Source: an uncultured Gammaproteobacteria bacterium (GTDB lineage Bacteria; Patescibacteriota; Microgenomatia; Levybacterales; UBA12049). From it: DNA of 64,000 bases. Positions 28,260 through 45,908 of the stretch are shown here, piece by piece (position 1 is the stretch's first letter; the number at the start of each line of letters is the position of its first letter). A program made the translations under genes and the position numbers. The notes beneath the pieces were generated by a model. It was not told the origin of the DNA, searched no databases, and worked only from the letters and a program-made list of their open reading frames with translations. The stretch spans positions 5,235-69,234 of the forward strand of contig CAYOZJ010000002.1 in the NCBI GenBank assembly GCA_964408485.1, in the 5' to 3' direction.

Positions 28260-28970
28260 TTATTGATACCGTATATCAAGTTTTTGAATTTCCTCATCGG
28301 TTAAACTAAGAGAGTGAAGCCAGGAAAGAAAATCACCTTTCCCGCTTGCTGCTTTCTGCGTAACAGTAAAGAAAAAGCTTCCACCTTCAGAATCAGAAAA
28401 GTCTGAAGTTACAGAAAAGCTGTCTGAATCGTAAGGCGTGTATGTTGCTAAATAAACATCTGGATAATTTTTTCGTTGTTCGCTGTCGGCGGTGGTCTGG
28501 AGATGATCATACTCTTGGGAAAGAGGAGCTACAGAATTGGATGAATTTCCTGTTGCAAACGTGCCAGTGAAGATAATATTGCCATCTTGGTCGAGAAACG
28601 AATAAGTATAAATTGTGTTGATATCAAGAGGTTGGGAAAATGCAATGATTATCTGATTGTTAGTTACTGTTGGCACAGATTCGATACTAGGATATATATT
28701 AAATGTTATGCCCGGCACAGGTTGGCTGAAGTTAGCTTTGATAGATGCGTTTGATAGAACGTTTTCTTCCTTGTCTTTCGGGGAAATGGATACTAAATGA
28801 ACAGAACTATTGATAATAGAGTTTGGTGCACTGATAGGTGTGGGCGTTGGAAGTGAGGACGGAAAAGGATTAAGTTGCGACTTCTGTCCTAAGCTGAAAA
28901 TCACCAAGCAAATGATGATGAGTATGACAATACTGCTAATAAGTATTAATTTCTTCATTGTTTTCTCCAC
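28260..28970 (-). CDS. signal-anchored secreted/surface protein (hypothetical), last gene of the T4SS-like operon
   Basis: 236 aa. N-terminal TM/signal (KKLILISSIVILIIICLVIF), a Pro/Thr linker and a β-rich ectodomain. Confidence 0.4.
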   Translation of the reverse strand: MEKTMKKLILISSIVILIIICLVIFSLGQKSQLNPFPSSLPTPTPISAPNSIINSSVHLVSISPKDKEENVLSNASIKANFSQPVPGITFNIYPSIESVPTVTNNQIIIAFSQPLDINTIYTYSFLDQDGNIIFTGTFATGNSSNSVAPLSQEYDHLQTTADSEQRKNYPDVYLATYTPYDSDSFSVTSDFSDSEGGSFFFTVTQKAASGKGDFLSWLHSLSLTDEEIQKLDIRYQ

Positions 28971-30136
28971 CAGCCTAAAATATTTGCCCCACGCCCTAGA
29001 TTGTCATTTAAGTTAGTCCATCGAAACCACGTAACGCCATGGCGATAATTTGCTTCAACCACACGAATAGTAAACTCATTACCCTGAACAGTTACAACAG
29101 TGGCAATATGTCCTGGGTCTGATCGCCCAGTGCTTCCATAGATAATTATATCCCCTGGAGCAATCGCTCCCCCAGCTTGATTTATTTTACTTGTTGTACA
29201 ACCACCAACGCGATATGGATTACAGATAAAGCTATATCCGGCTTGTCTATGGCCAGAGTTCATGGAGTACCATTGAAAAACACTTCCCACATTCCCTGGG
29301 AATACTGGCCAACCCAGTAAGTGTTGCGCAGACCAAATAAATTGTCCGCACTGAAAATTCGGGTATGTGGCATTAAGGTTGTTTTTAAATGATTGTGGAA
29401 TATTTAGATTTCTGACACAAGATGGATATGGTGCATGTGCGCCACCACCTTCACAAGTAAGAATTTGATTAACTGCATTAACCAATCCACCAAGAGAGCC
29501 AGATGGGACAGGGATTCCTCCAGATCCTCCGGCGTCTTGTGGCGGATTTCCAATAGCAATATCAAGAGACTGTATGGTTTTGTATGTAATTTGTTTAATT
29601 GGGGTGGGGAAAACTTGTTTGCCTTGCGTTGGTGACGGTAAGAGGGCACAAAAACTCAATGGGAAATCTTGTCCGGCTTGGTCTGGATTAGCAAAAGATG
29701 GTGTTTGCACAATAATATTAAGCCTGCACGCTTCTTCGGGAGAAATATGAAGTAGGGTAAGGATGTTTTGTTCGGCAATTCCTCTCGTCGTATCGAACGG
29801 TCCAGTAATAGTAACAAGAAATTGATTTGAGCCGGGTAAATAAACAATTCGATACTCATCCTTATCTGCTAATGCACGGTCTCCTTCGGGATCAAAGGGA
29901 GTTGTGGATTGATAAAAATTATCTGTTGTGACCCCATCAATTGTTATCGTATTTCCTGTGGGAATAGGGGCCGTAGTAGGATGAGTAACAGGAAAAAGTG
30001 GCTCAACAGGTGTGGGGGTAACAGTGTTGCTTGGCGTTGGTACCGATTTTTTGGGAAGATATAAAAAACCAACAACAAGCAGAATAGCAATAAAAAGAAG
30101 CCCACCAATAAGTAATCGAATCTTTGTCATATGCAT
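28955..30136 (-). CDS. membrane-anchored CHAP-domain peptidoglycan amidase/peptidase
   Basis: 393 aa. N-terminal TM anchor. The C-terminal CHAP signature has the catalytic Cys (NFQCGQFIWSAQH) and His (DPGHIATVVTV). Confidence 0.6.
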   Translation of the reverse strand: MHMTKIRLLIGGLLFIAILLVVGFLYLPKKSVPTPSNTVTPTPVEPLFPVTHPTTAPIPTGNTITIDGVTTDNFYQSTTPFDPEGDRALADKDEYRIVYLPGSNQFLVTITGPFDTTRGIAEQNILTLLHISPEEACRLNIIVQTPSFANPDQAGQDFPLSFCALLPSPTQGKQVFPTPIKQITYKTIQSLDIAIGNPPQDAGGSGGIPVPSGSLGGLVNAVNQILTCEGGGAHAPYPSCVRNLNIPQSFKNNLNATYPNFQCGQFIWSAQHLLGWPVFPGNVGSVFQWYSMNSGHRQAGYSFICNPYRVGGCTTSKINQAGGAIAPGDIIIYGSTGRSDPGHIATVVTVQGNEFTIRVVEANYRHGVTWFRWTNLNDNLGRGANILGWWRKQ

Positions 30137-30145
30137 ATTATATAG

Positions 30146-32284
30146 TTAGAAACACTTTCCTTTCTCAGCATGCCAGGGACCGTCCCAATTATTGCCTGCC
30201 GAGCGATAGAGACTTACTGCTGCTTTTACGTTGTTGGTTGGATTTTTCATAAAATTTGCGCAGCTATTTTCAAGGGATTGGTTTGCAATTTTGCATATAC
30301 CAGAACTATAACTAATGTTTTGGGCACACGACCTGGATACTAGGTCTCCATGTGCTAAAAGATTTATTTGAAATAAACCCACACTATAGTCTTTTGTCCC
30401 GCCTCGCAGACATGCACTATTAATAATTCCCGGATCTCCGCCGCTTTCGTGTTTGCAGATGCAACTTGCTACTGTTCCTTCTTTCTGTCCGCCAAAAAAT
30501 GGAGCAAGCGCTGTTGGACTACAGGAGCCTGATGCAAGCACAGGTTGACCTACTCGTACCGCACCAGTCGTATTAGCAGTTGTGGATTGATTTAGCCCAG
30601 GCGGTCCGCTCCCAAGTGCGTAGGCTGCAGTGATTTGGTTGTGAAGAATAATATCTTTTTCAGTGGGCGTTAGTGTTACATTAAATTCCCAGTGCTTATT
30701 AGATGCCGTTGAGTTAGGTAGGGGGGTATTTGCATCAAGATTCCAAGTAATGGAGTTGCCAGTCAACACGTGTTGTCCTGTAATACTATTTGCAACAATA
30801 GTGGCAGTCGTGGGAATTTGATCCGTTATAACCAACGAGTACTGGCCTGTGTAGTTAATATCAATGAGATATTTAATATTTTGTCCATTTAAATACGTTG
30901 TTTTGCCAGACGGGTCAGTAGTAAGGGTGAGAGTGAGCCCGGGAATTGGCGCAGTTCCTCCAGAGGGAGGGGGCGTATTAGAGAGAAGGATAATAATAAA
31001 TGCAGCAGCAAGTATAAGACCTAAGATTATTACAACTGCAACGAGAATAATGATAATGCCCAAAAGTACCTCTGGATCAATACCAAGCAGTAGAGCTAAT
31101 CCCTCAAAGCCACCTTGTCTTGCTGCAGCTCCTGCCACTAGCTCCTCTCCTTTTCTTGTTGTGTTTGCCAACTTTCTTCCTTCTCTTCCAGCATTTCTCA
31201 CTGCGTTGCCTGCTTGATTGACGAGTTGTCCTGTGCGACCATTTTGTTTTTGTTGTGTCGAACCCTGAAAGCTTCTTTGGGGAATTGCTTCCGGCTGCTG
31301 TTGAGAATAGTTTGCATGCTCAATTGCCGTATGAACGGTGTCTTCATACCCTTCATCAATTGTTGTGTTGTACGAAAAACCATACCTACCAAATTGTCTT
31401 ACTGCATCGTCGAGTGCAACTGATTGCCATTGATTGTCAAACGCCGTTCCAAGTCGTTGTAGTGCTAAGGAACGCATTGCGTCTGTCTGATCTGCATTTT
31501 GCGGTTGACCCCGAAGTGCTGCTTTTATGCTCTCGGCATTATATTGTTCTGTTTTTCGTTGGTTAAGAAGTTCTTGTGATTGATTACGTAATGCTTCGTC
31601 TGAAAGTGCCATGTTTTGGGTTTGCAGAAGCGGTGCAAGACGCGCATTGCCCTGTTTGCTTAGCTCGTCCAATTGTTGGGTAAGATCTTTTTTGTCTGCA
31701 TACAAGGATTGCGCTTGTGCCTGAAGTATTTTGTATTGATTTCCTAAAATTCCCGCAGCACTTAAATGAGTTCGGTAGAAATTTTCAATTGCGTCAGGAA
31801 GATCCTTCTCCGAGGTTGTGTCGAGAAGATGCTTAAAAGCATTAATCGTAGCAATTTTTTGCGTTTGCTTCAGTTTTTCGCTAGCTATATCTTTTGGATC
31901 CGGTCTACTGCTTCCGCCACCGTGATTTTCGGACTTTTTGGGAAGAATGCTCGCAAGCGTAGATGTTTGAGGTGGAGGAGTTTCTTGATTTGATACGGGT
32001 CCTGAAGTAGTAGGTGCGCTAAGGGGCTTACCCCATGCTAAAGCTTCTTCGAAAGTATTCTTTTCATCTCTTTCTAAGGAAAAAGGGTGCTCTTTGCCGT
32101 ATTCTTCAGCATACGCATGAATAAGCTCTCGGGCTAAGCGAGGAAAATTTTCATTATCATTAAGTCTTGCTGCTTGGCGTAATTCCTGAAGTCGGTCAAA
32201 AAGCTCTCGATTTCCCGCCCGTGCAGTTCGATCGAGAAATGCATAAAAACCATCCCACGTATTTGGAGCGTGATCATTGTCCAT
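30146..32284 (-). CDS. large bitopic protein with C-terminal VirB1/IagB-type lytic transglycosylase (SLT) domain
   Basis: 712 aa. A roughly 400-aa cytoplasmic N-domain without a P-loop, one TM (LGIIIILVAVVIILGLILAAAFIIIL) and an extracellular repeat region. The C-terminus carries CKHESGGDPGIINSA...GTKDYSVGLFQINLL, which matches the ES…DYGLMQIN signature of VirB1/IagB lytic transglycosylases. Confidence 0.6.
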   Translation of the reverse strand: MDNDHAPNTWDGFYAFLDRTARAGNRELFDRLQELRQAARLNDNENFPRLARELIHAYAEEYGKEHPFSLERDEKNTFEEALAWGKPLSAPTTSGPVSNQETPPPQTSTLASILPKKSENHGGGSSRPDPKDIASEKLKQTQKIATINAFKHLLDTTSEKDLPDAIENFYRTHLSAAGILGNQYKILQAQAQSLYADKKDLTQQLDELSKQGNARLAPLLQTQNMALSDEALRNQSQELLNQRKTEQYNAESIKAALRGQPQNADQTDAMRSLALQRLGTAFDNQWQSVALDDAVRQFGRYGFSYNTTIDEGYEDTVHTAIEHANYSQQQPEAIPQRSFQGSTQQKQNGRTGQLVNQAGNAVRNAGREGRKLANTTRKGEELVAGAAARQGGFEGLALLLGIDPEVLLGIIIILVAVVIILGLILAAAFIIILLSNTPPPSGGTAPIPGLTLTLTTDPSGKTTYLNGQNIKYLIDINYTGQYSLVITDQIPTTATIVANSITGQHVLTGNSITWNLDANTPLPNSTASNKHWEFNVTLTPTEKDIILHNQITAAYALGSGPPGLNQSTTANTTGAVRVGQPVLASGSCSPTALAPFFGGQKEGTVASCICKHESGGDPGIINSACLRGGTKDYSVGLFQINLLAHGDLVSRSCAQNISYSSGICKIANQSLENSCANFMKNPTNNVKAAVSLYRSAGNNWDGPWHAEKGKCF

Positions 32285-32287
32285 AGG

Positions 32288-34078
32288 CTATTTTGCGCTC
32301 TGTCCGGTCTCTGTTGGTGACAAGCTGGCATGCTGGTTTTGCATTTTTTGAAGTTCTTCTGGATCTGAGGTAATAATATTATGCTCAAAAGGTGCAGCAA
32401 CAATTTGAATGGCAACGTGATTCTGTCCTGCAAAGAAGAGTCCTTGGCCAACACCGGATGAGAGAAGCATTTGTCTTTCGCCATCAGATAGATAGAATGT
32501 TTTCGCGACCGTGTCAATTTCTGAGGTACTCTGCTTTAAAAGAATCTGTATAGAGCTGTTAGAAAGAATTGCGCGACCATAATCACTTGAAAGGAAATCT
32601 TGTACGTCTTGAGTCGCTGTAGTGAGTCCTAGATAGTATTTACGAGCCCTTTTGGCAATGCTGTACATAAAGGATGCAGAATCTTCATGTTTCATTAAGT
32701 ACCATGCCTCATCAACAATAAGTAAGCGTTTTTTTAAAGATTTTCTGACACGAGTCCACACAAAGTCTAAGAGAATATGCATTGCAATGGGTCTAAGTTC
32801 GTCTTCCAAGTCCCGAAGAGAAAAAATCGTGAGAGGATTTGTGATATTGAAATTCGATTGTTGGTTAAAAATGCCAGAAAGACTGCCGGTGACAAATTTT
32901 TCCAAACGGAGGGCAATGTTTTGTGCTATTGGATCCTGTGTTTTTACTAATCTCTGATACAAATCCTGCAAAATAGGAGGCGTTTTTGTCTGGCTTGCCG
33001 GATCTGCAGTAATTCCCTTATCTGCATATGTTTCAACAAGTGCTCTGTCCAAAATTGCATCTTCAGCAGGATTAACTGCACCAAGCATGATTTTTAAAAG
33101 TGCTCGGATAGAAAGGATCTTAAGTCCTAATTCGTTTTCTCCTTCTTCATAGACTCCTGATAAGTCAAATGGATTAATTCTCACAGGACTTGTTGCTGAG
33201 AAATTCAAATATTCTCCCCCTAAGCTCTCTGCGAGCTTGCCGTATTCACTTTCAGGATCAACAACAATAACTTCTGTCCCAAACATAAATTGGCGCATGA
33301 TTTCAAGCTTAATGCTAAAGGATTTACCTGATCCTGATTTTCCAAAAACAACTTCGTTAGCATTCTCTAAAGAGTATCTGTCAAAAATAATAAGTGAGCC
33401 ATTTTGTTGATTTACGCCGTACAAAATGCCTTTGTCTTGCGTTAAGGTAGCAGAGGTAAAAGGAAATGTCGATGCGAGACTAGATGTGTCCATGTTGCGT
33501 GTAATCGACAATTTGTCTTGTCCAATCGGTAGCGTTGTTTTAAATCCCTCCTCCATCTGAAGCGTTGCTGGTTTTGCTGTTACTAAAAGAGAGGAGAGCG
33601 TGCTGGTCAATTTTTTAGTTGCTTGTTCTAGTTCTGCGCTGTCTGTTGATGAGAGGGCAATGTAAAGACTAAATTGAAAAAACCGTTCTATTCCTTTTGC
33701 CAATTCTGCCTGGAGTCCAAGGGCGTCAGAAAGTGCTGCTGCAACTTTGGGATTTTCTGGTTTCCCTTTTTCTTCATCGCTTGACATTGTTGCTTCCATC
33801 TCGGCGATTTTGCGCTTTAAATTAGACAACACATCATCAGTAAAAATTGGATAGACAAACATACTAATTGCTAGAGAGTGATCAAAATCAATAACAGGGG
33901 ATAGCCACCCGACTGATACATATCGAGGGTAGCCAGAAACAAAAAATGTTCTGTAGAAATGATTACCGACACGAATCGTCTTAAAGTCTACCTCAACTTT
34001 TGTTGGGGCAATAGCATCTGCTGCATTGCCGGCTCCCTCAATAGATACTTCTTTAGATTTTTTAGTAAAAAGCGCCAT
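32288..34078 (-). CDS. virB4: VirB4/TrbE/CagE-family type IV secretion ATPase
   Basis: 596 aa. Walker A VFGKSGSGKSF, Walker B LLIVDEAWYLM, and the GLTTATQDVQDFL motif. Short, Gram-positive-like length. Confidence 0.85.
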   Translation of the reverse strand: MALFTKKSKEVSIEGAGNAADAIAPTKVEVDFKTIRVGNHFYRTFFVSGYPRYVSVGWLSPVIDFDHSLAISMFVYPIFTDDVLSNLKRKIAEMEATMSSDEEKGKPENPKVAAALSDALGLQAELAKGIERFFQFSLYIALSSTDSAELEQATKKLTSTLSSLLVTAKPATLQMEEGFKTTLPIGQDKLSITRNMDTSSLASTFPFTSATLTQDKGILYGVNQQNGSLIIFDRYSLENANEVVFGKSGSGKSFSIKLEIMRQFMFGTEVIVVDPESEYGKLAESLGGEYLNFSATSPVRINPFDLSGVYEEGENELGLKILSIRALLKIMLGAVNPAEDAILDRALVETYADKGITADPASQTKTPPILQDLYQRLVKTQDPIAQNIALRLEKFVTGSLSGIFNQQSNFNITNPLTIFSLRDLEDELRPIAMHILLDFVWTRVRKSLKKRLLIVDEAWYLMKHEDSASFMYSIAKRARKYYLGLTTATQDVQDFLSSDYGRAILSNSSIQILLKQSTSEIDTVAKTFYLSDGERQMLLSSGVGQGLFFAGQNHVAIQIVAAPFEHNIITSDPEELQKMQNQHASLSPTETGQSAK

Positions 34079-34080
34079 AA

Positions 34081-34671
34081 TTATTCGCTATATACATCAT
34101 GAAAAAGTTTTACCAATTCTGCTCCTGTAATAATCCGTGCACGAAGATTCATTCGGTCGATTTGAGAGAGAAGGCTTTCTGCTTTTGTCTTGAGTCCTGC
34201 ATGCGCCCTGATGAAGAAGTCATCAAGATTATCACTTCCCATTTTTGCAACTCCACCAATACCTTCTTCTAGAAGGGAGTAAGAAATAACAAAAAAGAAT
34301 TGTTTATCTAGGACTGTTGTTGATGTAACTAAGTCTTTAACAAACGATTGATATTGAAGAATGTCTTGGGAAAGCTTAGGGTTATTGGCTTTTTGGGAAG
34401 CAATGCCTAAGGAGTCGATATATGGGAGAATATTGACTTGTTTGCTACGCATGACAATTTGTACAGGGAAAGAAAGAGAATTAAGAAGTCCTGCGTAACC
34501 ATATACTTTCGCGTCCTGTTCCTCGCTTGATAAAAGGGCAAAATTTACTGCCTGGAGCTCGATAAGTAGGCAGGCATTGCCTCCTTTCATCAAAACAGTA
34601 TCCTCTCGAATGTCCAGGACTTCGGTAAAGGATTGCGTTGATTTTGCGTGATGTTGGGCAGCTTGTTTCAT
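34081..34671 (-). CDS. hypothetical cytoplasmic protein, co-transcribed upstream of virB4 (2-nt gap)
   Basis: About 197 aa from the internal Met; no motif. Could be a separately encoded VirB4 N-terminal or accessory domain (inference). Confidence 0.35.
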   Translation of the reverse strand: MKQAAQHHAKSTQSFTEVLDIREDTVLMKGGNACLLIELQAVNFALLSSEEQDAKVYGYAGLLNSLSFPVQIVMRSKQVNILPYIDSLGIASQKANNPKLSQDILQYQSFVKDLVTSTTVLDKQFFFVISYSLLEEGIGGVAKMGSDNLDDFFIRAHAGLKTKAESLLSQIDRMNLRARIITGAELVKLFHDVYSE

Positions 34672-34672
34672 A

Positions 34673-35848: not shown

Positions 35849-35912
35849 AATAGATCACCCTCGTGGCTACAGGACGCGTGAAAAAAAATAAAAAAAATGC
35901 AATACTAAAGTC

Positions 35913-36569
35913 ATGCCACTTTCTCTTTTTGTTGGGATCCTTATTATTCTTTTTTTACTCTCCCGCCGGGTTACCCGCTTGCTCTCGCATTTATTTGTTC
36001 GTCTTTTCCGCAGTCAGCACGCAGCGATCTATGCATTGTCTTTTATTTTTCTTCCTGGGGTTGTTTTGCATGAACTGTCACATTTGCTTTTGGCAAATAT
36101 TCTTTTTGTTCCAACAGGAGAGGTCGAATTTTTTCCAGAGATTCAAGGGGATCAAGTAAAAATGGGAAGTGTTGCTATTGCTCGCACAGACCCTTTACGA
36201 AGATTTCTTGTTGGTGTTGCACCGGTTATTGGAGGATTGGGTATTATTCTTTTAGCATCAACATATCTTTTTACCACACTTCTTTCTTGGCAAAGTTTAG
36301 TACTTTTTTACATAATTTTTGAAATAGCAAATACAATGTTTTCCAGCAGTAAAGACATGGAGGGAGCAGTAGGACTTCTTATTGGTCTTGCAGCGCTGAG
36401 TATTTTGCTACAATTTCTTGGTCTGCCATTATGGCAAGTGGTGATTCAGTTTCTGGGGAATGAATTCGTAAACAGCATTCTTATTAGAATGAATTTATTT
36501 TTGCTTTTAGCGCTGGGGCTTGACGTCTTTCTCGTGCTTCTTTTTGAAGGAATTGCCAGACTAAAGTAA
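35913..36569 (+). CDS. membrane-embedded HExxH zinc-metallopeptidase-like protein (DUF3267-like)
   Basis: 218 aa, 5-6 TM. HELSH lies within the GVVLHELSHLLLANI helix. It is the only plus-strand gene inside the minus-strand T4SS-like cluster, and it is adjacent to the pilin genes. Confidence 0.4.
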   Translation: MPLSLFVGILIILFLLSRRVTRLLSHLFVRLFRSQHAAIYALSFIFLPGVVLHELSHLLLANILFVPTGEVEFFPEIQGDQVKMGSVAIARTDPLRRFLVGVAPVIGGLGIILLASTYLFTTLLSWQSLVLFYIIFEIANTMFSSSKDMEGAVGLLIGLAALSILLQFLGLPLWQVVIQFLGNEFVNSILIRMNLFLLLALGLDVFLVLLFEGIARLK

Positions 36570-36890
36570 CTACTGACATGTTCCAAATCCAAACGAAAGA
36601 ATGCACGTGACTCCTGTAATGCCCGCAACAAGACCGATAATAAAAAATGAAAGAAGGACAATGATGAGACCGATAATGGCATAGGTGACAATATTTTTTG
36701 CTTCTTCAACGCCCTTGCCTCCACCGGAGGTTATATATTTAATGCTTGCAAAAAGAAGCATAAAAAGAGAAGCAAGCCCCACAAGATAAATAGCCGCACC
36801 TACTCCAATTCGGTATAGCGGAATAATGCAGGAAAGTGTTGGAATACCATTTACTACGCAGTCTTGACCATTAACAATCCATGAACTCAT
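36570..36890 (-). CDS. VirB2/TrbC-like pilin candidate (paralog 1 of 4)
   Basis: 106 aa with two hydrophobic helices flanking the ASIKYITSGGGKGVEEAKNIVTYAIIGLII core. Conserved with the other three paralogs. Confidence 0.5.
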   Translation of the reverse strand: MSSWIVNGQDCVVNGIPTLSCIIPLYRIGVGAAIYLVGLASLFMLLFASIKYITSGGGKGVEEAKNIVTYAIIGLIIVLLSFFIIGLVAGITGVTCILSFGFGTCQ

Positions 36891-36931
36891 ATATGTAGCC
36901 TATCAGAGAGAAAATAAGAAAACAAGAGAAG

Positions 36932-37327
36932 TTACCTTGTTAATGTAGGGAGCGTAAGATTAAATAGACTTACACCAACAAACAAGTTAAGAACAAAGTT
37001 GACGATGAGATAAGAAAGAAAAATAATAACAAGGCCAACAACAGCTGCCACTATTGTTTCGCGTGCTTTGTTAACGCCTTCTTTTTCTCCTTGAGACGTA
37101 AGCCACTTGACGCCGCCAAGAATCAAGAAAACTAATGCCAGCATGGCGGCAACAACAAAAACAAAATTAATTGCATTACCGATTACTTTATTTAAATCAG
37201 AGGCTCCAAGACAAAGAGCGCTAAAGTTACCAGGGGGACATGCATTAATGTTAACATCTGCAAATGCAATAGGAGCAAGAAATGCAGAAAGACTGAGCGT
37301 GCCGATTGAGGCAAATAATTTCTTCAT
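36932..37327 (-). CDS. VirB2/TrbC-like pilin candidate (paralog 2; Sec signal peptide)
   Basis: 131 aa. Signal peptide ...APIAFA|DV. Core LILGGVKWLTSQGEKEGVNKARETIVAAVVGLVIIFLSYLIV. Confidence 0.55.
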   Translation of the reverse strand: MKKLFASIGTLSLSAFLAPIAFADVNINACPPGNFSALCLGASDLNKVIGNAINFVFVVAAMLALVFLILGGVKWLTSQGEKEGVNKARETIVAAVVGLVIIFLSYLIVNFVLNLFVGVSLFNLTLPTLTR

Positions 37328-37367
37328 TGACTCTATCGTAGAAACAATTCTTTATCTTGTCAAGTCG

Positions 37368-37706
37368 CTAGTTGCCAAGAAGATGTACGCCAAACGTGAA
37401 ACCAATGAAGTTAATAATAAAAAATGACAAAAGAGCGAGAATAAGGCCGACAATCGCATATTGGATTGTTTTTTGTGCACCCTCCAACTGCTTTTTGTCT
37501 CCTTGAGACGTAATCCATTTTATTCCCCCAAACATAATAAAGAAAAATGAAAGTAAGATTACTGCAACAAATATGCTAATAATGACAAAAGAAACAATGC
37601 TTTGGATCGAGTTATTGTTCATGAGATTGCGTATTTGATTGGGAACGAGCACAGGATAGGTTGCTGGTTCATCTGGGTTGCCAATAACAAGAGCAAGATA
37701 CCTCAT
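37368..37706 (-). CDS. VirB2/TrbC-like pilin candidate (paralog 3)
   Basis: Start at the internal Met (37706). Core IMFGGIKWITSQGDKKQLEGAQKTIQYAIVGLILALLSFFII. Confidence 0.5.
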   Translation of the reverse strand: MRYLALVIGNPDEPATYPVLVPNQIRNLMNNNSIQSIVSFVIISIFVAVILLSFFFIMFGGIKWITSQGDKKQLEGAQKTIQYAIVGLILALLSFFIINFIGFTFGVHLLGN

Positions 37707-37707
37707 A

Positions 37708-38355
37708 TTATTTCCTAAAACCTGGAATTTGGAGAATATCAACGCCAATAAATTGCAAGATAACCACAGAGAAGATGATAAATATTAACCCAACAATTGC
37801 AGCAGTTAGTCTTTCCCTTGCTTCTTTTACTTTTTCAGGATTACCCTGTGACGTAATCATTTGGTATCCTGCAGCAATAACAAGAAGAATCGCAACCCCC
37901 CCGGAAAGTCCAAGAAGAATACCAAAGGTGCTTTTTACGAATCCCGCAACGGTTGTTTGAATGGGTCCAAAAGCAGTATCAACGCTTGCACATGTTCCAT
38001 TGGCATAGGTTTTGCATGGCGGAGCTAAGTATGGTGATGGTGAAGGGGGAATGGGTTTATTTTTATCTTTTGGCTCACAGCAATAGCCCGAACCCAAGAA
38101 GCCGCATTTTGGAACACATGGGCCAGTATCCCACAGGAATAAGCCACACCTACTACTTGTTCCATATTTGTATGAAGCATTAGGGGCTCCGTTAATAGTG
38201 CAGTTGTCACCCGGTTTTGGATTAGAAGCATTGGCATCTTGCGGCTGAGCGTTGCAATAGTTTGGATAATTACAGTCAGCCTGTACGTTTCCTAATGTGG
38301 CAAGGGTTAGGCAGAAGAAAACAAAGATAAAGACTCCTATTTTGAAGAATTTCAT
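37708..38355 (-). CDS. Cys-rich ectodomain fused to a VirB2/TrbC-like pilin module (paralog 4)
   Basis: Signal peptide MKFFKIGVFIFVFFCLTLATLGNVQA. A roughly 110-aa domain carries about 12 Cys (DCNYPNYCN...CGFLGSGYCCEP...). The C-terminus reads GYQMITSQGNPEKVKEARERLTAAIVGLIFIIFSVVIL. Confidence 0.5.
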   Translation of the reverse strand: MKFFKIGVFIFVFFCLTLATLGNVQADCNYPNYCNAQPQDANASNPKPGDNCTINGAPNASYKYGTSSRCGLFLWDTGPCVPKCGFLGSGYCCEPKDKNKPIPPSPSPYLAPPCKTYANGTCASVDTAFGPIQTTVAGFVKSTFGILLGLSGGVAILLVIAAGYQMITSQGNPEKVKEARERLTAAIVGLIFIIFSVVILQFIGVDILQIPGFRK

Positions 38356-38396
38356 ATATCTATCGTCCCACATGCTATCTTTGATTGTCAAGAAAA

Positions 38397-39764
38397 TTAT
38401 TGCTCGAATCGTATCCCTCTGCCTTTAACAGTGAGAATATGGATAGGTTTTGTGGGATCCTCTTCAATTTTCTTTCGAAGACGTAAGATGAGTTGGTCAA
38501 GTGCTTGCTCACTTACTCCAGATTGTGTTTTTGTGTCTGACCAAACAGTAGTAATAATTGTTTCTCGGTCAACAATGGTTCCTTGTTGTTTGAGAAGAAG
38601 TCGAAGTAAGCGAAACTCAGAAAACGTAAGCGTATCGGAGATAGGTTGTTCATCCTGATTGATTGTATTTGTTGATTCATCAAGCACAATTTTTGTAGAT
38701 ATATGTTTTGTGCTTTCTGTTTTTACATATTGTGCAAAAAGAGGAATGGTAATTTTTTGATTGTGAATAAGTCCAACGCTTTGAAGGAATTCGCTGGGGA
38801 GAGGGCAGTTGCCATTCTTGCAAAGCATGAGCATATCTTGTCTCTCATCTGGCGTTAGGAAGAGCCACAATTCCTTCAGTACTCCTTGGATGCCCTTTGT
38901 TCTGAGAAGAGATTTTTCAGTAGCACCGGCAAGAAGCGCTTCAAGCCCAAGCTTAGTGAGTTTGCCATGCCAGCCGGTAAGTGCAAGAAGCTTTTCAATG
39001 TATGACTCTGGTAATTTTTTCCCTGCAAGTTTTTCTAAGTAACGTAGGCGAAAGTCAAACCCAATGCGATCTTCAAGCTGTAGATAGATTGTGTTGTCCA
39101 CAACAAATTCATAAAAATCAGAAAAGATTTCTGGTTCAAGCATATCCTCCAGAGGACGTGTCGATGAGAAGACAATGGAAAAGGCATATTTTGCTCTGCT
39201 GCGAATGCTTCGCAAATTGTTAAAAAATTCTTCACTTGCCTGAGGGACAAAGGTTTCAAACCGGTCAAATAAAAAAATAATATGTAATTTTTTCTCAAGA
39301 GTTAGGTAATCAAATGCATCTTTAAGCTTCTGAAACAAAACCAACTCATCGTTATACGAAAGTGCTTCCTTAAAAAGCTTGTCTACCATTAAAAACTCTT
39401 CTTCTTTGCGTCTCTCATGCAGGCTAGATGCAAGCTCAAGAAAGAAGAATTTCATTATGTCAAAAAGAGACCTGTTTTTGATTTCTGAGAAATGAATTAA
39501 AACAAAATGATAGACCTCCTGCTTTGCCTCTCCTACATGGTGAATTCGTATATTTCTGTTATACGTTAATAAATTCAAGACAAAATTTCTTCCGGCTCCA
39601 GGCAGCGAGATAAGCTGAAGAGATTTACCAGCGTTAATTGCAGAAAAGATTTCTCCGATTTCTTTCTCGCGGGTAGTTGCCGGATAAAGAGATTCTAAGC
39701 GCTCCGCTTCATAATTGACTATTGAAGAGTGATTATTGACAATTGACCTGGATTTATTTTTCAT
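38397..39764 (-). CDS. transcriptional regulator, C-terminal OmpR/PhoB-type wHTH with N-terminal degenerate P-loop-like domain. Sits immediately upstream of the pilin genes on the same strand.
   Basis: 455 aa. The C-terminus (FSEFRLLRLLLKQQGTIVDRETIITTVWSD...ALDQLILRLRKKI...ILTVKGRGIRF) is a trans_reg_C wHTH. The N-terminal SLQLISLPGAGRNFVLNLL is paralogous to 12763..14064. Confidence 0.5.
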   Translation of the reverse strand: MKNKSRSIVNNHSSIVNYEAERLESLYPATTREKEIGEIFSAINAGKSLQLISLPGAGRNFVLNLLTYNRNIRIHHVGEAKQEVYHFVLIHFSEIKNRSLFDIMKFFFLELASSLHERRKEEEFLMVDKLFKEALSYNDELVLFQKLKDAFDYLTLEKKLHIIFLFDRFETFVPQASEEFFNNLRSIRSRAKYAFSIVFSSTRPLEDMLEPEIFSDFYEFVVDNTIYLQLEDRIGFDFRLRYLEKLAGKKLPESYIEKLLALTGWHGKLTKLGLEALLAGATEKSLLRTKGIQGVLKELWLFLTPDERQDMLMLCKNGNCPLPSEFLQSVGLIHNQKITIPLFAQYVKTESTKHISTKIVLDESTNTINQDEQPISDTLTFSEFRLLRLLLKQQGTIVDRETIITTVWSDTKTQSGVSEQALDQLILRLRKKIEEDPTKPIHILTVKGRGIRFEQ

Positions 39765-40116
39765 AGCTATTGCCCTTCGCTGTTTTAATAGAACTCACGA
39801 ATATCTTTACGATTTGAATTCCTTCATCAATCAAAATATCAAACTTTTTCCTCAATGACGGATTTATCTCAGCAAGCAGATCAAGCCAATAGACAGTTTC
39901 ATGTGCTTCCTTGCGACAAATATTTATTATATGTGTGAAGTCTAACTTTGTGTCTGCAAATATGGCCTCAGCATAGTTAGCTCCTATTGACGATACCGAT
40001 CTTATGAGCTGTTTTGCGAAAACAATGTTTTCCTGAGTTTTTGGAAGACTTCTTAATAAGAAAATAGTTTCTAGAACAAATTTTTTAATTCTTCCAGACA
40101 GCTCCTTACTTGTCAT
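39754..40116 (-). CDS. four-helix-bundle protein (23S rRNA intervening-sequence protein family)
   Basis: 120 aa. SIGANYAEA resembles the hallmark motif of the family (…SVGANIAEG…). Confidence 0.5.
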   Translation of the reverse strand: MTSKELSGRIKKFVLETIFLLRSLPKTQENIVFAKQLIRSVSSIGANYAEAIFADTKLDFTHIINICRKEAHETVYWLDLLAEINPSLRKKFDILIDEGIQIVKIFVSSIKTAKGNSYEK

Positions 40117-40147
40117 AGTTACTTAATCATAATTTTTAACCTTTAAT

Positions 40148-40201
40148 TAGTCAATTTATCCTATGGTCAATAATCAATTGTAAATAATAAATAGTCAATT
40201 T
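40148..40201. repeat. direct repeats TAGTCAATTT x2 (40148..40157, 40192..40201) in the divergent promoter region
   Basis: Two exact 10-mers 44 bp apart, with a related GTCAATAATCAATT between them. Candidate operator sites. Confidence 0.35.
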
Positions 40202-40262
40202 CGTAATGGTTTTGTGAGGTAAATATCAAGGAAAAATCTTGAGTTAATTCTACAATACGCTC

Positions 40263-43200
40263 ATGAGTAATGCAGAATTGACACCAACTGGAGGAAGCAG
40301 GTACGATGGATATATGAGTGCAGGTACATCAACAGCCACAGCAGAAAGACCATCATCCTACCAAAGCGATGTAGCCCCAGCGCCGGTAAGTGAAGCAACA
40401 GCATCGCTTAAGGCAAATGCAGACACTGGGAGAGAAACTGGTGTGGAGCCTATTTCTGCTAAAACAGATGCGCTGCCGGAATTGACAGAAAGAGTAAACA
40501 AAGAGGGAAGAAGAAATCTTACCAGTAATGAGCTAATAAAAGTTGCAAATACTGTCCAAGGAAAGGCTTCGGCAGGAGATGTGATGGCTGATGCCGATTT
40601 TGTGTCGAATGCAGCAAAAATTCTTATTTATAATATTGAGTCTGATGTTGCAAATCACAATACAAATCAAGTCATGCTTGCAGAGTTTAAAGCCAACAAG
40701 ATTCCTGAGGCAGCAAAAGAGCTTGCAGAGGCAATAACAGTAATTAAAGCAAACGGTCAGCTAACGGAAAATGAAGATACAGGTGACAGATGGGAGAGAA
40801 TTAAACAGCAAGCGGGCCGTATTGCTGATTTGGCAAAGACGATCTCTTCGTATTATGAAAGAGCAAAACTTTCCAGAGAATATGACGATCCATTTAGGCA
40901 GGTTGTCTCATTTGAAGAATTGATGACCAGATTTAATATTACGCTTGATGATGATCGCTTTAAGTCGGGTGGGGACTTTTCTCTTATCGACATTAATGAA
41001 TATGAAGATCAATTTGGACGGCAAATGTCCGATGAAACAGCACATCCAGAAAATTTCTACCGCTGGGTTATGGAGCGGGCAGAGTTTTACCATGACTTTG
41101 ATCCCATGGCGCCGGTTGATCTTTTTCAAGGAATGTACATCGTAGCAGGCTCAAGAAAAATTCCTATGTATGAAATGTTAGTTGATTTTAATTCATACTT
41201 TGCTCACCGGGTAAAAACAAAAGGAGAGTTAAAGGTTTTGGAATCAGATTTGGATCGTGCAGAAAAAGCAGGAACATATGAGTCAATGGCAGTAATAGAA
41301 GGGGGGAGAGAGGTCTTAAAAACGGATCCTTATGATCAGAAAGCGCTTGGTCGTTACAAAAATGTTGAGATTATTGATGAGGAAACGGGTGAGAAGAAGA
41401 CTGTAGATGTATATGTTAGTCCAGTTCCTGAAGAAGATCAGGAAAGGCATGTACGAGTTTTGCCAGTGTATTACTACAACGATAAAGGTAAGCTTATGCC
41501 AGTGCGAGAATGGTTGCAAAGTAAAGAACAGTGGGACACAATTCCGCCAAAAGATCCAAGAGCAAAAGAATTTGAAAATGCGCAGGAAGAAATTATGTAT
41601 CAGCTATGGCTTCAGACAAAAAGTCATAATGCAGACGTGAATTATCGACAAAAGGGTATGCCAAGTGAGACTCCATTAAAAGACGTTATGGCAGAAATTT
41701 ACAGTGATAATATTTGGACACGTACGCATCGAAGAATTGCTGGCATTTTAGACATGCCTGCCTCAACGTATAGAGGTGACGTAGATGAAAATGGCAAGCC
41801 CATTAACGAAGCTGCAATGAAGTGGAAAGGCAAAGATATAGGACAAGGAACTTTGGGAAAAGCATTCCAGAGGTCTTTAGCTGCGTATTATCATATTGCA
41901 GAAGCAAATGCAGAGTATAACAAATACAATACTGAAGGATTTAATCCCTTTTTTAACATATTAGAAAGACGGGCAAATGAGGGAAAAGGAGAACTTGAAG
42001 TAAATGGAGGAGAGATTTTTTACAAAGCACTTATTGGGAGACTTCTTACAAATAAAGATGATACTCAATTCGATGAAGGGAACTTAAGCTATAGATTCGA
42101 TAAAAAACATCCAGAAAGTAGTTTTGTAGAGGCTGAATTTTTGGCAGAAATTAATAATATTCGCGTCCCAATAAAAGACGGTACAACGCGAGCGAGATTT
42201 GCTTGGGAAAAAGCAGAATTGGCAGATTTGCTTATGCATAATCGCGCAGATTTTTTGACCACCTCAAACGAGGGAAGAAGTAGGTCTATAACGTCAGGAG
42301 CTCTCGCAGAAGTGGAAAGAATAATACGTGAAAGATACGCAGAAAAAAGAGATGAAAACGGAAATGTTATTCAGGTAGCAAATAGAGAAAGGTTGCAACA
42401 ATTACAAATATTTCTTGACTCATTTAATAAGTCAAATAATTCAGATCAAAGAAGAGGAGATTTTCTTGATATGGTGAAAAAAAGGGTTAGACCAGGTAGT
42501 AGTGAGAGTGATGTTGATGCGTATAATAGGACAGAAAAAGCTTTCAGGGACGATGCTTCGCTAAAAAACCTTTCAGGTTTTGCTGTTGCCATGTTTGTTA
42601 GGTCATTTGATGGAAATAAGGATTTTACTGCCGGTATTAATCCGTATGAGAATATTCGCTATTCCTTAGATGCAAGAGAATTAATGCGAGGCGCAATGCG
42701 CGATACAATTTCCTACACAGAAAAGTTAGACGATCATGATGCATTGTGGGCAGAGGAATGGGCATATACCTTCACATTCCATACTGGCATTTCAGCAAGA
42801 AATGATATGCAGGGAATTGGGCATGATGCATGGTCGAAAGTAATCAATACAGAATTTTACCGTTTGCGTCAGTCTGGCGGTGGTAATTATTTGGGGAATA
42901 AAGATAATTTATATGGTATTCATCGGCTTGGGACTGACTTTTGGCAAGGATTAAAGGTGCGAGAGAAAGGATCAAATGAATACGGGAAAAATTTGTATGA
43001 AATTCTTGTTGGTTTAGAAAATGTAACGGATTCAAAAGGGAACGTAATAGGTCATAGAATGAATCTAAATAAAGATGTGAAAAAATTTGAATTTGCAGGA
43101 AATGCAATGCGCCAATTCTATGCGGATCATGTAAGTCATGCTGTTGATATGTTTATTGATATTACTCAAAAGCAGGAATTTAACCTGGATAAATTACTGC

Positions 43201-43838
43201 ATAGAGATCAATTGGGACGAATGACATGGAATAATGAAGAAATGCAGAAAATGATTGATTCAACATGGAAACATATGCGATATGGTTTTGATAATAATGG
43301 ATTTTTGTATGACAATACTGTCTACGGGTGGCTGTATGACGAGACTATTAATGCTCATGGTCAAGTATCACGAAAGCCTCACTTTGGCTTTATGACACTT
43401 CGGGAGTCTATGTTTAGTAAAAAAGTACGTGAAATGGGAATGTATAACAGGCATGATGTGTCGGGTTGGGCTGCAAATCAATACAAATCAAAAATGGGAC
43501 GTAATGTTTTTGCATACCTTATTGCAGCGCAGCTTCGCGAGCATACACGAATGGCAGGGGGGTATAAACTTTATTCTGCAGAAGATGTTGAACACATTGC
43601 TCATGCATTCATGGAGTATGCCGCTCGTGTGATGCAGGGACAAGATGGTGAGGCGATTGTGCTATCTGGATTCTTTACGCCAGAGGAAATGATGAAGATC
43701 TTGGTAACAGGCCACGCAATTCTCTGGGCGCTCTGGATGCGTGAATATAGAGATGCATTCACAGGAGGATTCTTGTTTGGTTTTTTTGAAGCATTAGGCC
43801 TTGTCATGAAACAAGCAGGGGCAGGAATAAAGTTTTAA
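40263..43838 (+). CDS. very large hypothetical protein (1191 aa), no P-loop, no TM, no signal peptide
   Basis: Long uninterrupted ORF with typical codon usage; no family motif recognised. Embedded in the T4SS-like locus and convergent with the VirB6-like gene. Confidence 0.5.
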   Translation: MSNAELTPTGGSRYDGYMSAGTSTATAERPSSYQSDVAPAPVSEATASLKANADTGRETGVEPISAKTDALPELTERVNKEGRRNLTSNELIKVANTVQGKASAGDVMADADFVSNAAKILIYNIESDVANHNTNQVMLAEFKANKIPEAAKELAEAITVIKANGQLTENEDTGDRWERIKQQAGRIADLAKTISSYYERAKLSREYDDPFRQVVSFEELMTRFNITLDDDRFKSGGDFSLIDINEYEDQFGRQMSDETAHPENFYRWVMERAEFYHDFDPMAPVDLFQGMYIVAGSRKIPMYEMLVDFNSYFAHRVKTKGELKVLESDLDRAEKAGTYESMAVIEGGREVLKTDPYDQKALGRYKNVEIIDEETGEKKTVDVYVSPVPEEDQERHVRVLPVYYYNDKGKLMPVREWLQSKEQWDTIPPKDPRAKEFENAQEEIMYQLWLQTKSHNADVNYRQKGMPSETPLKDVMAEIYSDNIWTRTHRRIAGILDMPASTYRGDVDENGKPINEAAMKWKGKDIGQGTLGKAFQRSLAAYYHIAEANAEYNKYNTEGFNPFFNILERRANEGKGELEVNGGEIFYKALIGRLLTNKDDTQFDEGNLSYRFDKKHPESSFVEAEFLAEINNIRVPIKDGTTRARFAWEKAELADLLMHNRADFLTTSNEGRSRSITSGALAEVERIIRERYAEKRDENGNVIQVANRERLQQLQIFLDSFNKSNNSDQRRGDFLDMVKKRVRPGSSESDVDAYNRTEKAFRDDASLKNLSGFAVAMFVRSFDGNKDFTAGINPYENIRYSLDARELMRGAMRDTISYTEKLDDHDALWAEEWAYTFTFHTGISARNDMQGIGHDAWSKVINTEFYRLRQSGGGNYLGNKDNLYGIHRLGTDFWQGLKVREKGSNEYGKNLYEILVGLENVTDSKGNVIGHRMNLNKDVKKFEFAGNAMRQFYADHVSHAVDMFIDITQKQEFNLDKLLHRDQLGRMTWNNEEMQKMIDSTWKHMRYGFDNNGFLYDNTVYGWLYDETINAHGQVSRKPHFGFMTLRESMFSKKVREMGMYNRHDVSGWAANQYKSKMGRNVFAYLIAAQLREHTRMAGGYKLYSAEDVEHIAHAFMEYAARVMQGQDGEAIVLSGFFTPEEMMKILVTGHAILWALWMREYRDAFTGGFLFGFFEALGLVMKQAGAGIKF

Positions 43839-45647
43839 CTATTTATTAAGACCTGGTTCGTTTTCTCCAGCAAGTTTTCTCATCTTACCAAATGGCGTAG
43901 GGATATTCATAAACCACTTTCGCAATCCTCCTTCACTCAAGCCTCGCACAGTATCTTGATGTCTGGTAAGTCTTTTCCATGGCTGACTGACAATACTACT
44001 GTATGCTTGGGTTCCTTGAGCCAACATTTGTCCAACTCCTGGTAAGTATTTAATATCCGGAGCCTTTAGAGCGTCTTGAAGCATGGTGAGCGCTTGAGGT
44101 AGAAGCAAGATAATGCCAAACCCAATAAGCGGTCCCATAAATTGACTTACCCCATTTGGGACACCAATAAGAGGTGGAACAAAGCCTGTTTTACTTTGCA
44201 GATAGACATCTGAAATAACTCGTCCGAGTAAAATAATACCTATTGCATAGGGAAAAACAAGGCTATACGCAAGCAAGTGACGAAGCCAATTGTCAAAGTT
44301 AATAGAAGTACCGGGTAATACGCCAAGCAAAATAAAGAACGGTCCTAATATCGCATAGAGGAGGAAAAGAACATATGATTTTAAAAGCGAAAAGTACATG
44401 CGAAGAAGCGCGAAAAGAAGCGCAAAAGCAAAAATAAAGAAAGCAACAATACCAGCAATACTGGATATGCCATCAGTAAAGCCGTTTTTAATACATGATA
44501 CTAAGGGTGAATCGGCGGCATTTGTTGCGAGCTGAACAGCTCCAGCAACATGATTGCCAAAAATAAGGTTAGCAACTGCACCGAAATTGCCCAGAATTGG
44601 CTGTGCAACAGCATTTCCTATTGCTTGGGGAACCGAAGCGGGAAGAGCCAAAACCCTTAGCGGAAGAGGAAGGAAGCCGAATGCTCCCTGGCTTCCCAAT
44701 AATTGTTGAGGTGCATTACCAATTGATCCCAAAAAGCAAGGAATAATGCCAGGAAGTGCCATCCAGCCTGCATTTTGCACAAGAGCCTGAGCGAGTCCGA
44801 CATTTATGTCGTAAATTGATGCGGCAGGTTGTACAATCATTCCCAAAATGCCACCTGTATAGACAGTGTCCAGAAATGTAATAGGATTGGTAGAGATATT
44901 TGCTGTCATCAACGCAGGTTGCAGCGCTGGATCAAGTGTTGAAAAAAGATTAATAGTAATAAATGTCGCAAGCCACATAATATCGATAACAAATCCGGCA
45001 ATTGCATAAGAAAATGTTACAAGAATCAATGCGACAATAATCTTTGGAATCTGATTTTCAATTGTCATAACTGTACGTGGATCTATTTTTGCCCGAAGCA
45101 TAATCGCAAATCCCACAACAACAAAAACAATAACAAATAATAAGTATGCAACATTGCGAAATGCAAGCCAAAGCTTCATAACTGGTGCCAACTGATCAAA
45201 TCCTGTGCCTGATGCTGCATTTGCACTTTTTACTGCGCCAAAATTTCCTGCAACATAGCTGACATAATTACCAACATGGAATTGTGGCGGACTGAAAAGA
45301 AGAGCAATGCCAGAGTTGGTGAGACCGAGAAGACCTTGATTTGTTGTTGTAGCGCGAGTTAACTGTCCTGTTTTGGAATTGTACCCAAGACATCCTTGCT
45401 GAGGACTGGTGACATCTCGTCCATCGATTGCACAACTTGCAAAAGAGAGAAATCCCCACATGACGCCTTGTGCTAGATTGCTTACCGTTGGGGCAACAGT
45501 ATTGTCAAAAGAGTTTGTTGCGGTTTGAGTATTAACTGGAATTTCTTGTTGGGCATAAACCTTGGAAGGTAAAAAGGAATAGACACTAGATAGTATAAGA
45601 AGCAAAAGTACGCCAATTGCACTAAAAAACCGGGCAGAAAAATGCAT
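43839..45647 (-). CDS. polytopic membrane protein, VirB6/TrbL-like candidate
   Basis: 602 aa. Signal peptide, a roughly 120-aa extracytoplasmic N-domain, then 7 or more TM helices with Gly/Ala-rich loops. Architecture and locus context fit a VirB6-type channel component; there is no diagnostic motif. Confidence 0.35.
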   Translation of the reverse strand: MHFSARFFSAIGVLLLLILSSVYSFLPSKVYAQQEIPVNTQTATNSFDNTVAPTVSNLAQGVMWGFLSFASCAIDGRDVTSPQQGCLGYNSKTGQLTRATTTNQGLLGLTNSGIALLFSPPQFHVGNYVSYVAGNFGAVKSANAASGTGFDQLAPVMKLWLAFRNVAYLLFVIVFVVVGFAIMLRAKIDPRTVMTIENQIPKIIVALILVTFSYAIAGFVIDIMWLATFITINLFSTLDPALQPALMTANISTNPITFLDTVYTGGILGMIVQPAASIYDINVGLAQALVQNAGWMALPGIIPCFLGSIGNAPQQLLGSQGAFGFLPLPLRVLALPASVPQAIGNAVAQPILGNFGAVANLIFGNHVAGAVQLATNAADSPLVSCIKNGFTDGISSIAGIVAFFIFAFALLFALLRMYFSLLKSYVLFLLYAILGPFFILLGVLPGTSINFDNWLRHLLAYSLVFPYAIGIILLGRVISDVYLQSKTGFVPPLIGVPNGVSQFMGPLIGFGIILLLPQALTMLQDALKAPDIKYLPGVGQMLAQGTQAYSSIVSQPWKRLTRHQDTVRGLSEGGLRKWFMNIPTPFGKMRKLAGENEPGLNK

Positions 45648-45696
45648 ATTTCCAGTGTGGAAGATTTTAAAAGGAAAGTCAAGATTAATGAGATAA

Positions 45697-45721: not shown

Positions 45722-45810
45722 TCACAAGTTGTCGCTGCGGCGACCCTCGCGATCCCGCCTCCCTCGCTTTGCTCAGTCCGGCATTCGAATCCCGAGAATT
45801 AATAATCTAG

Positions 45811-45898: not shown

Positions 45899-45908
45899 TT
45901 GTCGAAAA

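Follow-up and report, generated by a model that had tools for sequence, protein, structure and literature searches.

A predicted relaxase-less, pilin-bearing type IV secretion system beside the replication origin of a Microgenomates-type Patescibacterium

We analyzed a 64 kb stretch of contig CAYOZJ010000002.1 (hereafter the window), in which 15 protein genes at 28260–45647 form a type IV secretion system (T4SS) block immediately beyond the replication origin. The block is very probably a chromosomal, vertically inherited, relaxase-less and pilin-bearing T4SS typical of the Patescibacteria (Candidate Phyla Radiation, CPR), and descends from the conjugation machinery of monoderm bacteria (MPF_FATA). 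Systems of this kind have already been described (2023–2025), and a first-pass annotation made from the raw sequence correctly rediscovered the published system, including both of its headline features. Pfam and NCBIfam bear out nearly all of the component calls made in that annotation. The annotation had the block start directly after dnaN, with all but two genes on the minus strand, and this is what we found: the first gene ends one base past dnaN, 13 genes are on the minus strand and two are on the plus strand. It had counted 17 genes, two more than the 15 that we find, and the intergenic gaps within the block are too short for additional genes. Three of the 15 had not been named in the annotation, i.e., those for a Big_5 immunoglobulin (Ig)-like protein, a TrsD-like protein and a 23S_rRNA_IVP protein.

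The VirB4-family ATPase passes a curated cutoff. NCBIfam NF045971 (conju_CD1110, "VirB4-like conjugal transfer ATPase, CD1110 family") is matched at 419 bits, where the cutoff is 325. In Pfam, against which every open reading frame (ORF) of at least 100 amino acids (aa) in the window was scanned, P-loop_TraG is matched with an e-value of 1e−31, and AAA_10 and DUF87 are matched as well. The Walker A motif (GKSGSGKS, residue 246), the Walker B motif (LLIVDEAW) and a TATQ motif can be read from the translation, as had been claimed. On profile score, the ATPase is predicted to group with the monoderm MPF_FATA conjugation ATPases. The match to NF045971 begins at profile position 186, and thus the gene lacks the usual N-terminal domain.

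The small TrsD-like gene that adjoins virB4 is predicted to supply this N-terminal domain as a separate gene. Its product matches residues 98–241 of Mbov_0397, a mycoplasma VirB4 model (e-value 5e−8), and full-length TrsD (e-value 1.6e−3). Its identity is 57% with an orthologous ORF annotated as TraC-like (PF26593) and 55% with residues 1–197 of a VirB4 from a relative in which the two parts are fused (787 aa). A profile-profile comparison between the TrsD-like family and the N-terminal 235 aa of the window VirB4 resulted in no similarity, which is expected because the small gene would be the very domain that this VirB4 lacks. In the relative L086, one gene of 787 aa (2307–4670) was called for both the TrsD/TraC-like domain and the VirB4 ATPase, an arrangement that points to gene fission or fusion within the clade, or to a sequencing frameshift.

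Two further membrane components are recognizable. The 391-aa protein encoded next to the TrsD-like gene scores 26.9 bits for PrgI, just below the Pfam cutoff of 27, and PrgI is clearly matched on its orthologues. The PrgI domain is followed by a coiled-coil linker and a C-terminal, extracellular CarboxypepD_reg beta-sandwich (33.9 bits), so that the VirB3-like protein with a coiled coil and a beta-sandwich of the first-pass annotation stands, the PrgI match being marginal. The VirB6-like protein (602 aa) scores 28.6 bits for TrbL/VirB6 (PF04610) against a cutoff of 25.9, in agreement with its earlier call as a polytopic VirB6-like protein. It begins with a signal or transmembrane (TM) segment, which is followed by an extracytoplasmic region and then by at least six TM segments. 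Sequence-profile searches of the PDB with the TrsD-like and VirB6-like families, and with the HExxH family discussed below, returned nothing useful.

The two predicted wall hydrolases are both above their Pfam cutoffs. The product of 28955–30136 contains a CHAP domain (31.6 bits, cutoff 26) and is predicted to have a VirB1-type wall-opening function. The second is a 712-aa protein with about 400 cytoplasmic aa, one TM segment (residues 406–424), a DUF11-like Ig domain and a C-terminal SLT_3 domain. The DUF11 repeat match is weak. SLT_3 at residues 604–704 scores 29.1 bits against a cutoff of 27 and carries the motifs HESGG and DYSVGLFQIN, the latter being the DYxxGLxQIN signature noted beforehand. 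The Ig-like protein encoded at 28260–28970 may be the counterpart of an exported PEGA/Ig protein, SEML1_0005, of the Saccharibacterium Southlakia epibionticum.

Four tandem genes had been called as VirB2/TrbC-like pilin paralogs, and all four products match T4SS_pilin (PF18895) with e-values of 1e−5 to 2.5e−10; two of them are above the gathering cutoff and two are just below it. The four pilins are 26–38% identical to one another, share a two-helix core and contain pairs of TM segments. The first pilin of the array, which is nearest to the regulator gene (37708–38391), contains a cysteine-rich region of about 110 aa (at least 12 Cys) between the signal peptide and the pilin core. A long first pilin (249–313 aa) is also found in relatives. 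The Cys-rich first pilin is a possible tip or adhesin subunit.

We compared the block with related genomes using a scan at one genome per species, which yielded at least 202 VirB4 relatives. The best 80 (57–89% identity) were examined, and the window proteins were compared with these 80 loci by TBLASTN. All 80 are from metagenome-assembled genomes of Patescibacteria, including Levybacteria, Curtissbacteria, Microgenomates and others, together with evidently mislabeled bins. The host genome is that of a Microgenomates/Levybacteria-type Patescibacterium, and the housekeeping synteny and small-genome gene content of the window agree with this. The order that recurs in the 80 loci is VirB6, the large gene, the regulator, pilins, PrgI, TrsD, VirB4, 2–7 kb of variable genes and then convergent dnaN, dnaA and yidC. 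The TrsD-like gene is present in 76/80 loci, and a PrgI-like gene lies directly upstream of the TrsD-VirB4 pair in 75/80; the regulator was found in 26. Family hidden Markov models (HMMs) were applied where the sequence upstream of virB4 extended for 9 kb or more (53 loci). All 53 contain the TrsD-like protein, and 32 contain the VirB6-like protein (within 10 kb of virB4); matches to pilins, the regulator, the large protein and the HExxH protein came from 25, 22, 11 and five loci, respectively. Pilin arrays in the relatives range from 0 to 8 genes, and the variable stretch between virB4 and dnaN contains shuffled wall hydrolases (SLT_3, Amidase_3 with NlpC/P60, CHAP) and DUF11 Ig domains. Where at least 8 kb of flank was available (49 of the 80 loci), dnaN was located within 10 kb downstream of virB4 in 46. 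Since this order beside dnaN, dnaA and yidC recurs across genera at 57–89% VirB4 identity, the locus has probably been inherited vertically and is not a recent insertion. We predict it to be a core locus and not a mobile element. The earlier view of a chromosomally fixed locus beside oriC thus agrees with an order that recurs in 80 genomes and with the lack of mobility genes, and the published work on Patescibacteria reaches it as well (PMC10633639, PMC12102498).

The neighborhood of the origin is canonical. Allowing up to one mismatch, eight of the 30 matches to the DnaA box TTATCCACA in the window are within 25650–27125, with perfect boxes immediately upstream of dnaA and in the dnaA-dnaN spacer, and the minimum of the cumulative GC skew is at about 20–27 kb. 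To the left of dnaA on the minus strand are rnpA, yidD, yidC and a KH/R3H (jag-like) gene, and the flanks of the block are housekeeping in nature (ruvABC, leuS, glycolysis genes, penicillin-binding proteins, smpB with tmRNA, and a tRNA cluster). For 13 of the 15 T4SS genes, transcription runs toward the origin, i.e., on the lagging strand and head-on to the replication fork. The dnaN gene is convergent with virB4 in 54 related loci, and the head-on orientation is kept in these 54 and in Southlakia. High expression of the locus had been inferred from its position only; the head-on orientation does not favor very high expression, and a gene-dosage effect would require overlapping rounds of replication in slow-growing cells. 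Most of the genes at 46–64 kb are also on the minus strand, although the GC skew there is positive. Promoter and terminator scans gave counts at or below the shuffled expectation.

One of the closest described counterparts is in Southlakia epibionticum, in which an "apparent T4SS" (SEML1_0006–0019) was found to be most like Gram-positive conjugative systems (Wang et al., 2023; PMC10633639). It has an essential pilin array and no recognizable coupling or relaxase proteins, and it is essential for epibiotic growth by transposon sequencing (PMC10633639). In the gene table, the T4SS comes directly after dnaA, dnaN and recF, on the opposite strand, and the cluster encodes an exported Ig-like protein, lysozymes, VirB4, a small unannotated protein, PrgI, large unknowns and six pilins, followed by comF and tRNA-Ser (PMC10633639). 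By this table, the Southlakia ML1 locus (SEML1_0004–0019, Saccharimonadia) is broadly collinear with the window. Common to both are the Ig-like protein, wall hydrolases, VirB4, a TrsD-like protein, PrgI, large unannotated proteins, a VirB2-like array and the lack of a relaxase or coupling protein in the cluster. Southlakia belongs to a different class and has six pilins, with phage-tail lysozyme and glucosaminidase as its hydrolases, whereas the window has four pilins, encoded on the virB4 strand, and CHAP and SLT hydrolases. The window adds the site-2-protease (S2P)-like gene, the P-loop-like/winged helix-turn-helix (wHTH) regulator and the IVP gene. The placement of comF/comFC and tRNA-Ser after the T4SS in both Southlakia and the window suggests synteny across classes. 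In the window, the RNA-gene cluster at 45810–53695 contains seven tRNAs (five Ser and two Arg), tmRNA (52821–53221), smpB and a comFC-like gene (51867–52568).

In a survey of the clade, Quiñonero-Coronel et al. (2025; PMC12102498) reported MPF_FATA ancestry, TrsD as the commonest partner and few relaxases. VirB2-like arrays (mean identity about 25%) were described above all for Microgenomatia and Saccharimonadia, and in Microgenomatia and Paceibacteria the systems were located near dnaA/dnaN, a position for which a gene-dosage effect on expression was suggested (PMC12102498). A later FEMS review treats the Patescibacteria systems as a distinct newcomer group of T4SS (December 2025; PMC12857230). 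The window matches the systems of the survey in its MPF_FATA-type VirB4, adjoining TrsD homolog, low-identity VirB2-like array, lack of a relaxase and nearby dnaA/dnaN, and its pilin identities are in line with the published mean (PMC12102498). The survey rarely found VirB3 linked to virB4 in Microgenomatia (22.6%) and found VirB6 to be scarce there (PMC12102498), whereas in our loci the PrgI-like gene directly precedes TrsD-VirB4 in 75/80 and a VirB6-like gene is within 10 kb in 32/53. Therefore the earlier gaps look like limits of detection sensitivity, which is probably what they are.

The monoderm MPF_FATA systems (CTn2 with CD1110, pGO1 with TrsC/D/E, pCF10 with PrgH–L, and pIP501) share with the window the VirB4 family, the PrgI-type VirB3 and a VirB6-like protein; our account of them draws partly on established knowledge. 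The order of TrsD followed by VirB4 is as in pGO1, and the combination of SLT and CHAP wall hydrolases is as in PrgK/TraG, with the difference that in the window SLT and CHAP are on two separate proteins. The monoderm systems possess a relaxase, a coupling protein, an origin of transfer (oriT), a location on a mobile element and surface adhesins, and they are without VirB2 pilins. A VirB8-like protein is not recognized in the window.

No relaxase, VirD4/type IV coupling protein (T4CP), VirB11 or integrase was found in the Pfam scan of ORFs of at least 100 aa across the 64 kb, as the first-pass annotation had stated for the block. The T4CP family is unmatched in the window, the CD1115 VirD4-like model reaches only 13.6 bits, on VirB4 itself, and the only Walker A motif in the block is that of VirB4. 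An ordinary or decaying integrative and conjugative element (ICE), or a captured plasmid module, inserted beside dnaN or at tRNA-Ser, whose relaxase, coupling protein and integrase are outside the block or were recently lost, is a very improbable explanation that is already largely refuted. It would fit a VirB4 from a conjugative-element family (CD1110 of CTn2), a block GC content of 0.40–0.43 against about 0.39 in the flanks, and a block that ends at tRNA-Ser, the 3′ end of which has a duplicate at a distance of 108 nt. The duplication is a 25-nt exact direct repeat, AATCTAGCGGAGAGGACGGGATTCG, at 45696–45720 and 45804–45828. The 3′ end of tRNA-Ser(GGA) makes up one copy, and the second, 108 nt downstream beyond a GC-rich 83-nt spacer and just before the VirB6 start, resembles an att-type scar or tRNA fragment. 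We rejected integration at this tRNA-Ser: the copies are only 108 nt apart and do not bracket the block, and there is no copy near 28260. The absence of a relaxase, T4CP and integrase from 64 kb and a gene order beside dnaN, dnaA and yidC that is held across genera at 57–89% VirB4 identity also argue against an ICE. A classical conjugative element had been doubted from the start, and the window, with no mobility genes and no att repeats flanking the block, gives the same answer.

We therefore return to the fixed, pilin-bearing T4SS and to what it may do. Following established T4SS knowledge, VirB4 docked on PrgI/VirB3 and VirB6 would power the extraction of pilins from the membrane and their polymerization into a pilus or conduit, and the CHAP and SLT hydrolases would open the cell's own wall for the passage of the structure. 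By analogy with Southlakia, the structure would then contact a host cell and allow a contact-dependent exchange needed for growth. Because the DNA-processing parts are absent, the exchange would most likely be of protein or another macromolecule, and conjugation driven by a relaxase is unlikely. Any ranking among protein delivery, import of macromolecules and pure adhesion is a loose one.

Several points weigh against this T4SS reading. Essentiality is known for a single species of Saccharimonadia, and function in the Microgenomates is predicted from genes. No pilus has been observed, no VirB8-like component was recognized in the block, and PrgI and two of the pilins are slightly under their Pfam cutoffs. 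Our scan covered 64 kb, and a VirD4-like gene could be encoded elsewhere in the genome; such genes are common elsewhere in Patescibacteria genomes (PMC12102498). There is also a published alternative, of which we are doubtful, in which the machine imports DNA or other macromolecules from the host, like Helicobacter ComB or the archaeal Ced system, so that host nucleic acids feed a cell without nucleotide synthesis (Quiñonero-Coronel et al., 2025; PMC12102498). The absence of export-type coupling parts and the comFC-like gene 6 kb away would suit import, as would a weak similarity of VirB4 to CedB (56.9 bits against a cutoff of 700), but the latter is no more than the general likeness of the VirB4 family, and no DNA-binding or nuclease component was recognized in the block. 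In Southlakia, comEC-dependent competence is non-essential while the T4SS is essential, which speaks neither for nor against import (PMC12102498, PMC12857230). About equally unlikely is a pure adhesion organelle, in which host recognition by a VirB2-type pilus of variable subunits would be the whole function, with no translocation. Four divergent pilins, one with a Cys-rich extension that makes it a candidate tip or adhesin, the lack of a coupling protein and the variation in array size among relatives are compatible with this, but Patescibacteria already adhere by type IV pili (PMC12102498, PMC12857230), and a conserved VirB6 channel protein with a large cytoplasmic partner of 1191 aa suggests more than the assembly of a pilus.

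The plus-strand gene at 35913 encodes the membrane HExxH protein that had been noticed next to the pilin genes. None of its 428 homologs has a Pfam domain. The residues H53, E54, H57 and N140-x7-D148 are invariant across 38 homologs, and the N-x7-D spacing is that of the NxxPxxxLDG motif of site-2 proteases. The AlphaFold model is confident (predicted local distance difference test, pLDDT, of 92.7). Pfam M50 is not matched, PDZ and CBS domains are also absent from the protein, and it is only 13–17% identical to the site-2 proteases of MEROPS family M50 (RseP, SpoIVFB, MjS2P and Eep). We regard the protein as a putative minimal S2P-like intramembrane zinc metalloprotease that appears to be associated with the pilin array. 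In five of six sampled homologs (40–58% identical), the gene, on the opposite strand, is flanked by PrgI and the last pilin gene, and the same slot is occupied in 6/7 of the TBLASTN loci that carry the gene. The first-pass annotation had proposed a pilin-maturation peptidase, which is a reasonable guess; cleavage of leader peptides or of another membrane-protein substrate would fit equally well. The S2P Eep is linked to pheromone processing for pCF10 conjugation, and this serves as an analogy only.

The 1191-aa protein was correctly described as having no recognizable domain: it has no sequence match in Pfam, NCBIfam, PHROG or the PDB, and no signal peptide, TM segment or P-loop was found in it. 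Its structure is predicted with confidence, and the model is unmatched by structures in the PDB. When 1.84 billion cluster representatives were scanned in full with HMMER, at least 229 relatives of 800–1700 aa were obtained, which share mainly the C-terminal 400 or so residues. Relatives of the gene are in the corresponding position in 12 loci, and the family gene is adjacent to and convergent with the VirB6 gene in all nine loci showing both. In the window, the 1191-aa gene (plus strand) and the VirB6-like gene (minus strand) meet tail-to-tail at 43838/43839. There is no spacer and no terminator-like hairpin between them, and therefore the 3′ ends of the two transcripts should overlap. Three distant members of the family, sampled at random, have similar neighbors: in L081 these are the regulator, IVP and a weak-TrbL protein, in L083 the regulator with three pilin genes, and in L082, a short contig, there is only an unannotated convergent ORF in the VirB6 position. 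The obvious options for the protein are a cytoplasmic partner of VirB6 or a substrate.

We consider it possible, with little confidence, that the S2P-like protease and the 1191-aa protein are functional T4SS parts without a counterpart in any studied T4SS. The protease could serve specifically to process the VirB2-like pilins or their leader peptides, and the 1191-aa protein could be moved through the machine as a substrate or could stand in for the coupling protein that is missing. If true, T4SS pilins would here mature by a new route, namely processing by an S2P-like protease.

The regulator had been reported as a wHTH protein, and its C-terminus is of the OmpR type (Trans_reg_C, e-value 2e−17), with PDB profile matches only on the wHTH. 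Its N-terminal domain appears to be a degenerate P-loop/AAA-like domain, for which one orthologue has a faint AAA_35 match. We predict a cytoplasmic protein with a P-loop-like N-terminal domain and a winged-helix DNA-binding domain. A paralog of 433 aa (12763–14064, minus strand; 25% identity), also with a C-terminal Trans_reg_C wHTH, is encoded on the other side of the origin near leuS and glycolysis genes. There is an 11-nt overlap between the IVP gene and the start of the regulator gene, and the IVP-regulator pair is also found in the distant relative L081 (IVP at 3043–3468). The IVP family is related to bAvd, based on a weak PF22296 match on an orthologue. A diversity-generating retroelement was considered and rejected, since the block encodes no reverse transcriptase and a template/variable repeat pair was not found; pilin paralogy accounts for the one long repeat.

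Few machines are known on which the host-dependent lifestyle of this very large and mostly uncultured part of the bacterial tree depends, and the Patescibacteria T4SS is one of them. The window is one more well-preserved Microgenomates example and leaves the question of cargo and direction unchanged. Its additions are a complete 15-gene parts list for this sub-clade, PrgI-like and VirB6-like proteins that are present and syntenic in Microgenomatia, and two candidate accessory families, the S2P-like protease by the pilins and the large protein by VirB6 whose model has no PDB match. The features are listed in Table 1.

Table 1. Features of the origin region and the T4SS block, in window coordinates.
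Feature	Position	Strand	Basis
Origin region	25650–27125		dnaA and DnaA-box cluster, including the dnaA-dnaN spacer
dnaA	25679–27019	+	Pfam Bac_DnaA
dnaN sliding clamp, convergent with the T4SS block	27164–28258	+	All three DNA_pol3_beta domains
Exported Ig-like protein	28260–28970	−	N-terminal TM/signal; Pfam Big_5, 25.5 bits (cutoff 23.6)
Putative CHAP amidase/peptidase, membrane-anchored	28955–30136	−	Pfam CHAP; N-terminal TM
Bitopic SLT_3 protein, 712 aa	30146–32284	−	Pfam SLT_3; TM; motifs
VirB4 ATPase, predicted MPF_FATA/CD1110 type	32288–34078	−	NF045971; P-loop_TraG
TrsD-like/TraC-like, predicted split VirB4 N-domain	34081–34671	−	VirB4 N-region and TrsD matches
PrgI/VirB3-like membrane protein, 391 aa	34673–35848	−	PrgI; CarboxypepD_reg
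S2P-like (M50-like) HExxH protein, 218 aa	35913–36569	+	Conserved residues; model
Four-pilin array	36570–38391	−	PF18895 T4SS_pilin
Pilin gene	36570–36890	−	
Pilin gene	36932–37327	−	
Pilin gene	37368–37748	−	
Pilin gene	37708–38391	−	
wHTH regulator, 455 aa	38397–39764	−	Trans_reg_C
23S_rRNA_IVP four-helix-bundle protein	39754–40116	−	PF05635, e-value 1.7e−16
1191-aa protein, no known domain	40263–43838	+	
VirB6/TrbL-like polytopic protein, 602 aa	43839–45647	−	PF04610; TM segments
tRNA-Ser(GGA), far boundary of the block	45810–45898	−	ARAGORN

The tRNA calls are those of ARAGORN throughout. Elsewhere in the window, the genes at 46906–48909 (plus strand, 667 aa) and 54003–55772 (minus strand, 589 aa) have no Pfam or PHROG match, and the product of the former has a single C-terminal TM segment. 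To the left of the origin, a gene at 18014–20698 (minus strand) encodes an 894-aa DUF4012 protein with a weak match to the NSP15 (EndoU-like) C-terminal domain, and it is adjoined by an RNase H/RVT_3 gene at 20664–21095 (minus strand).

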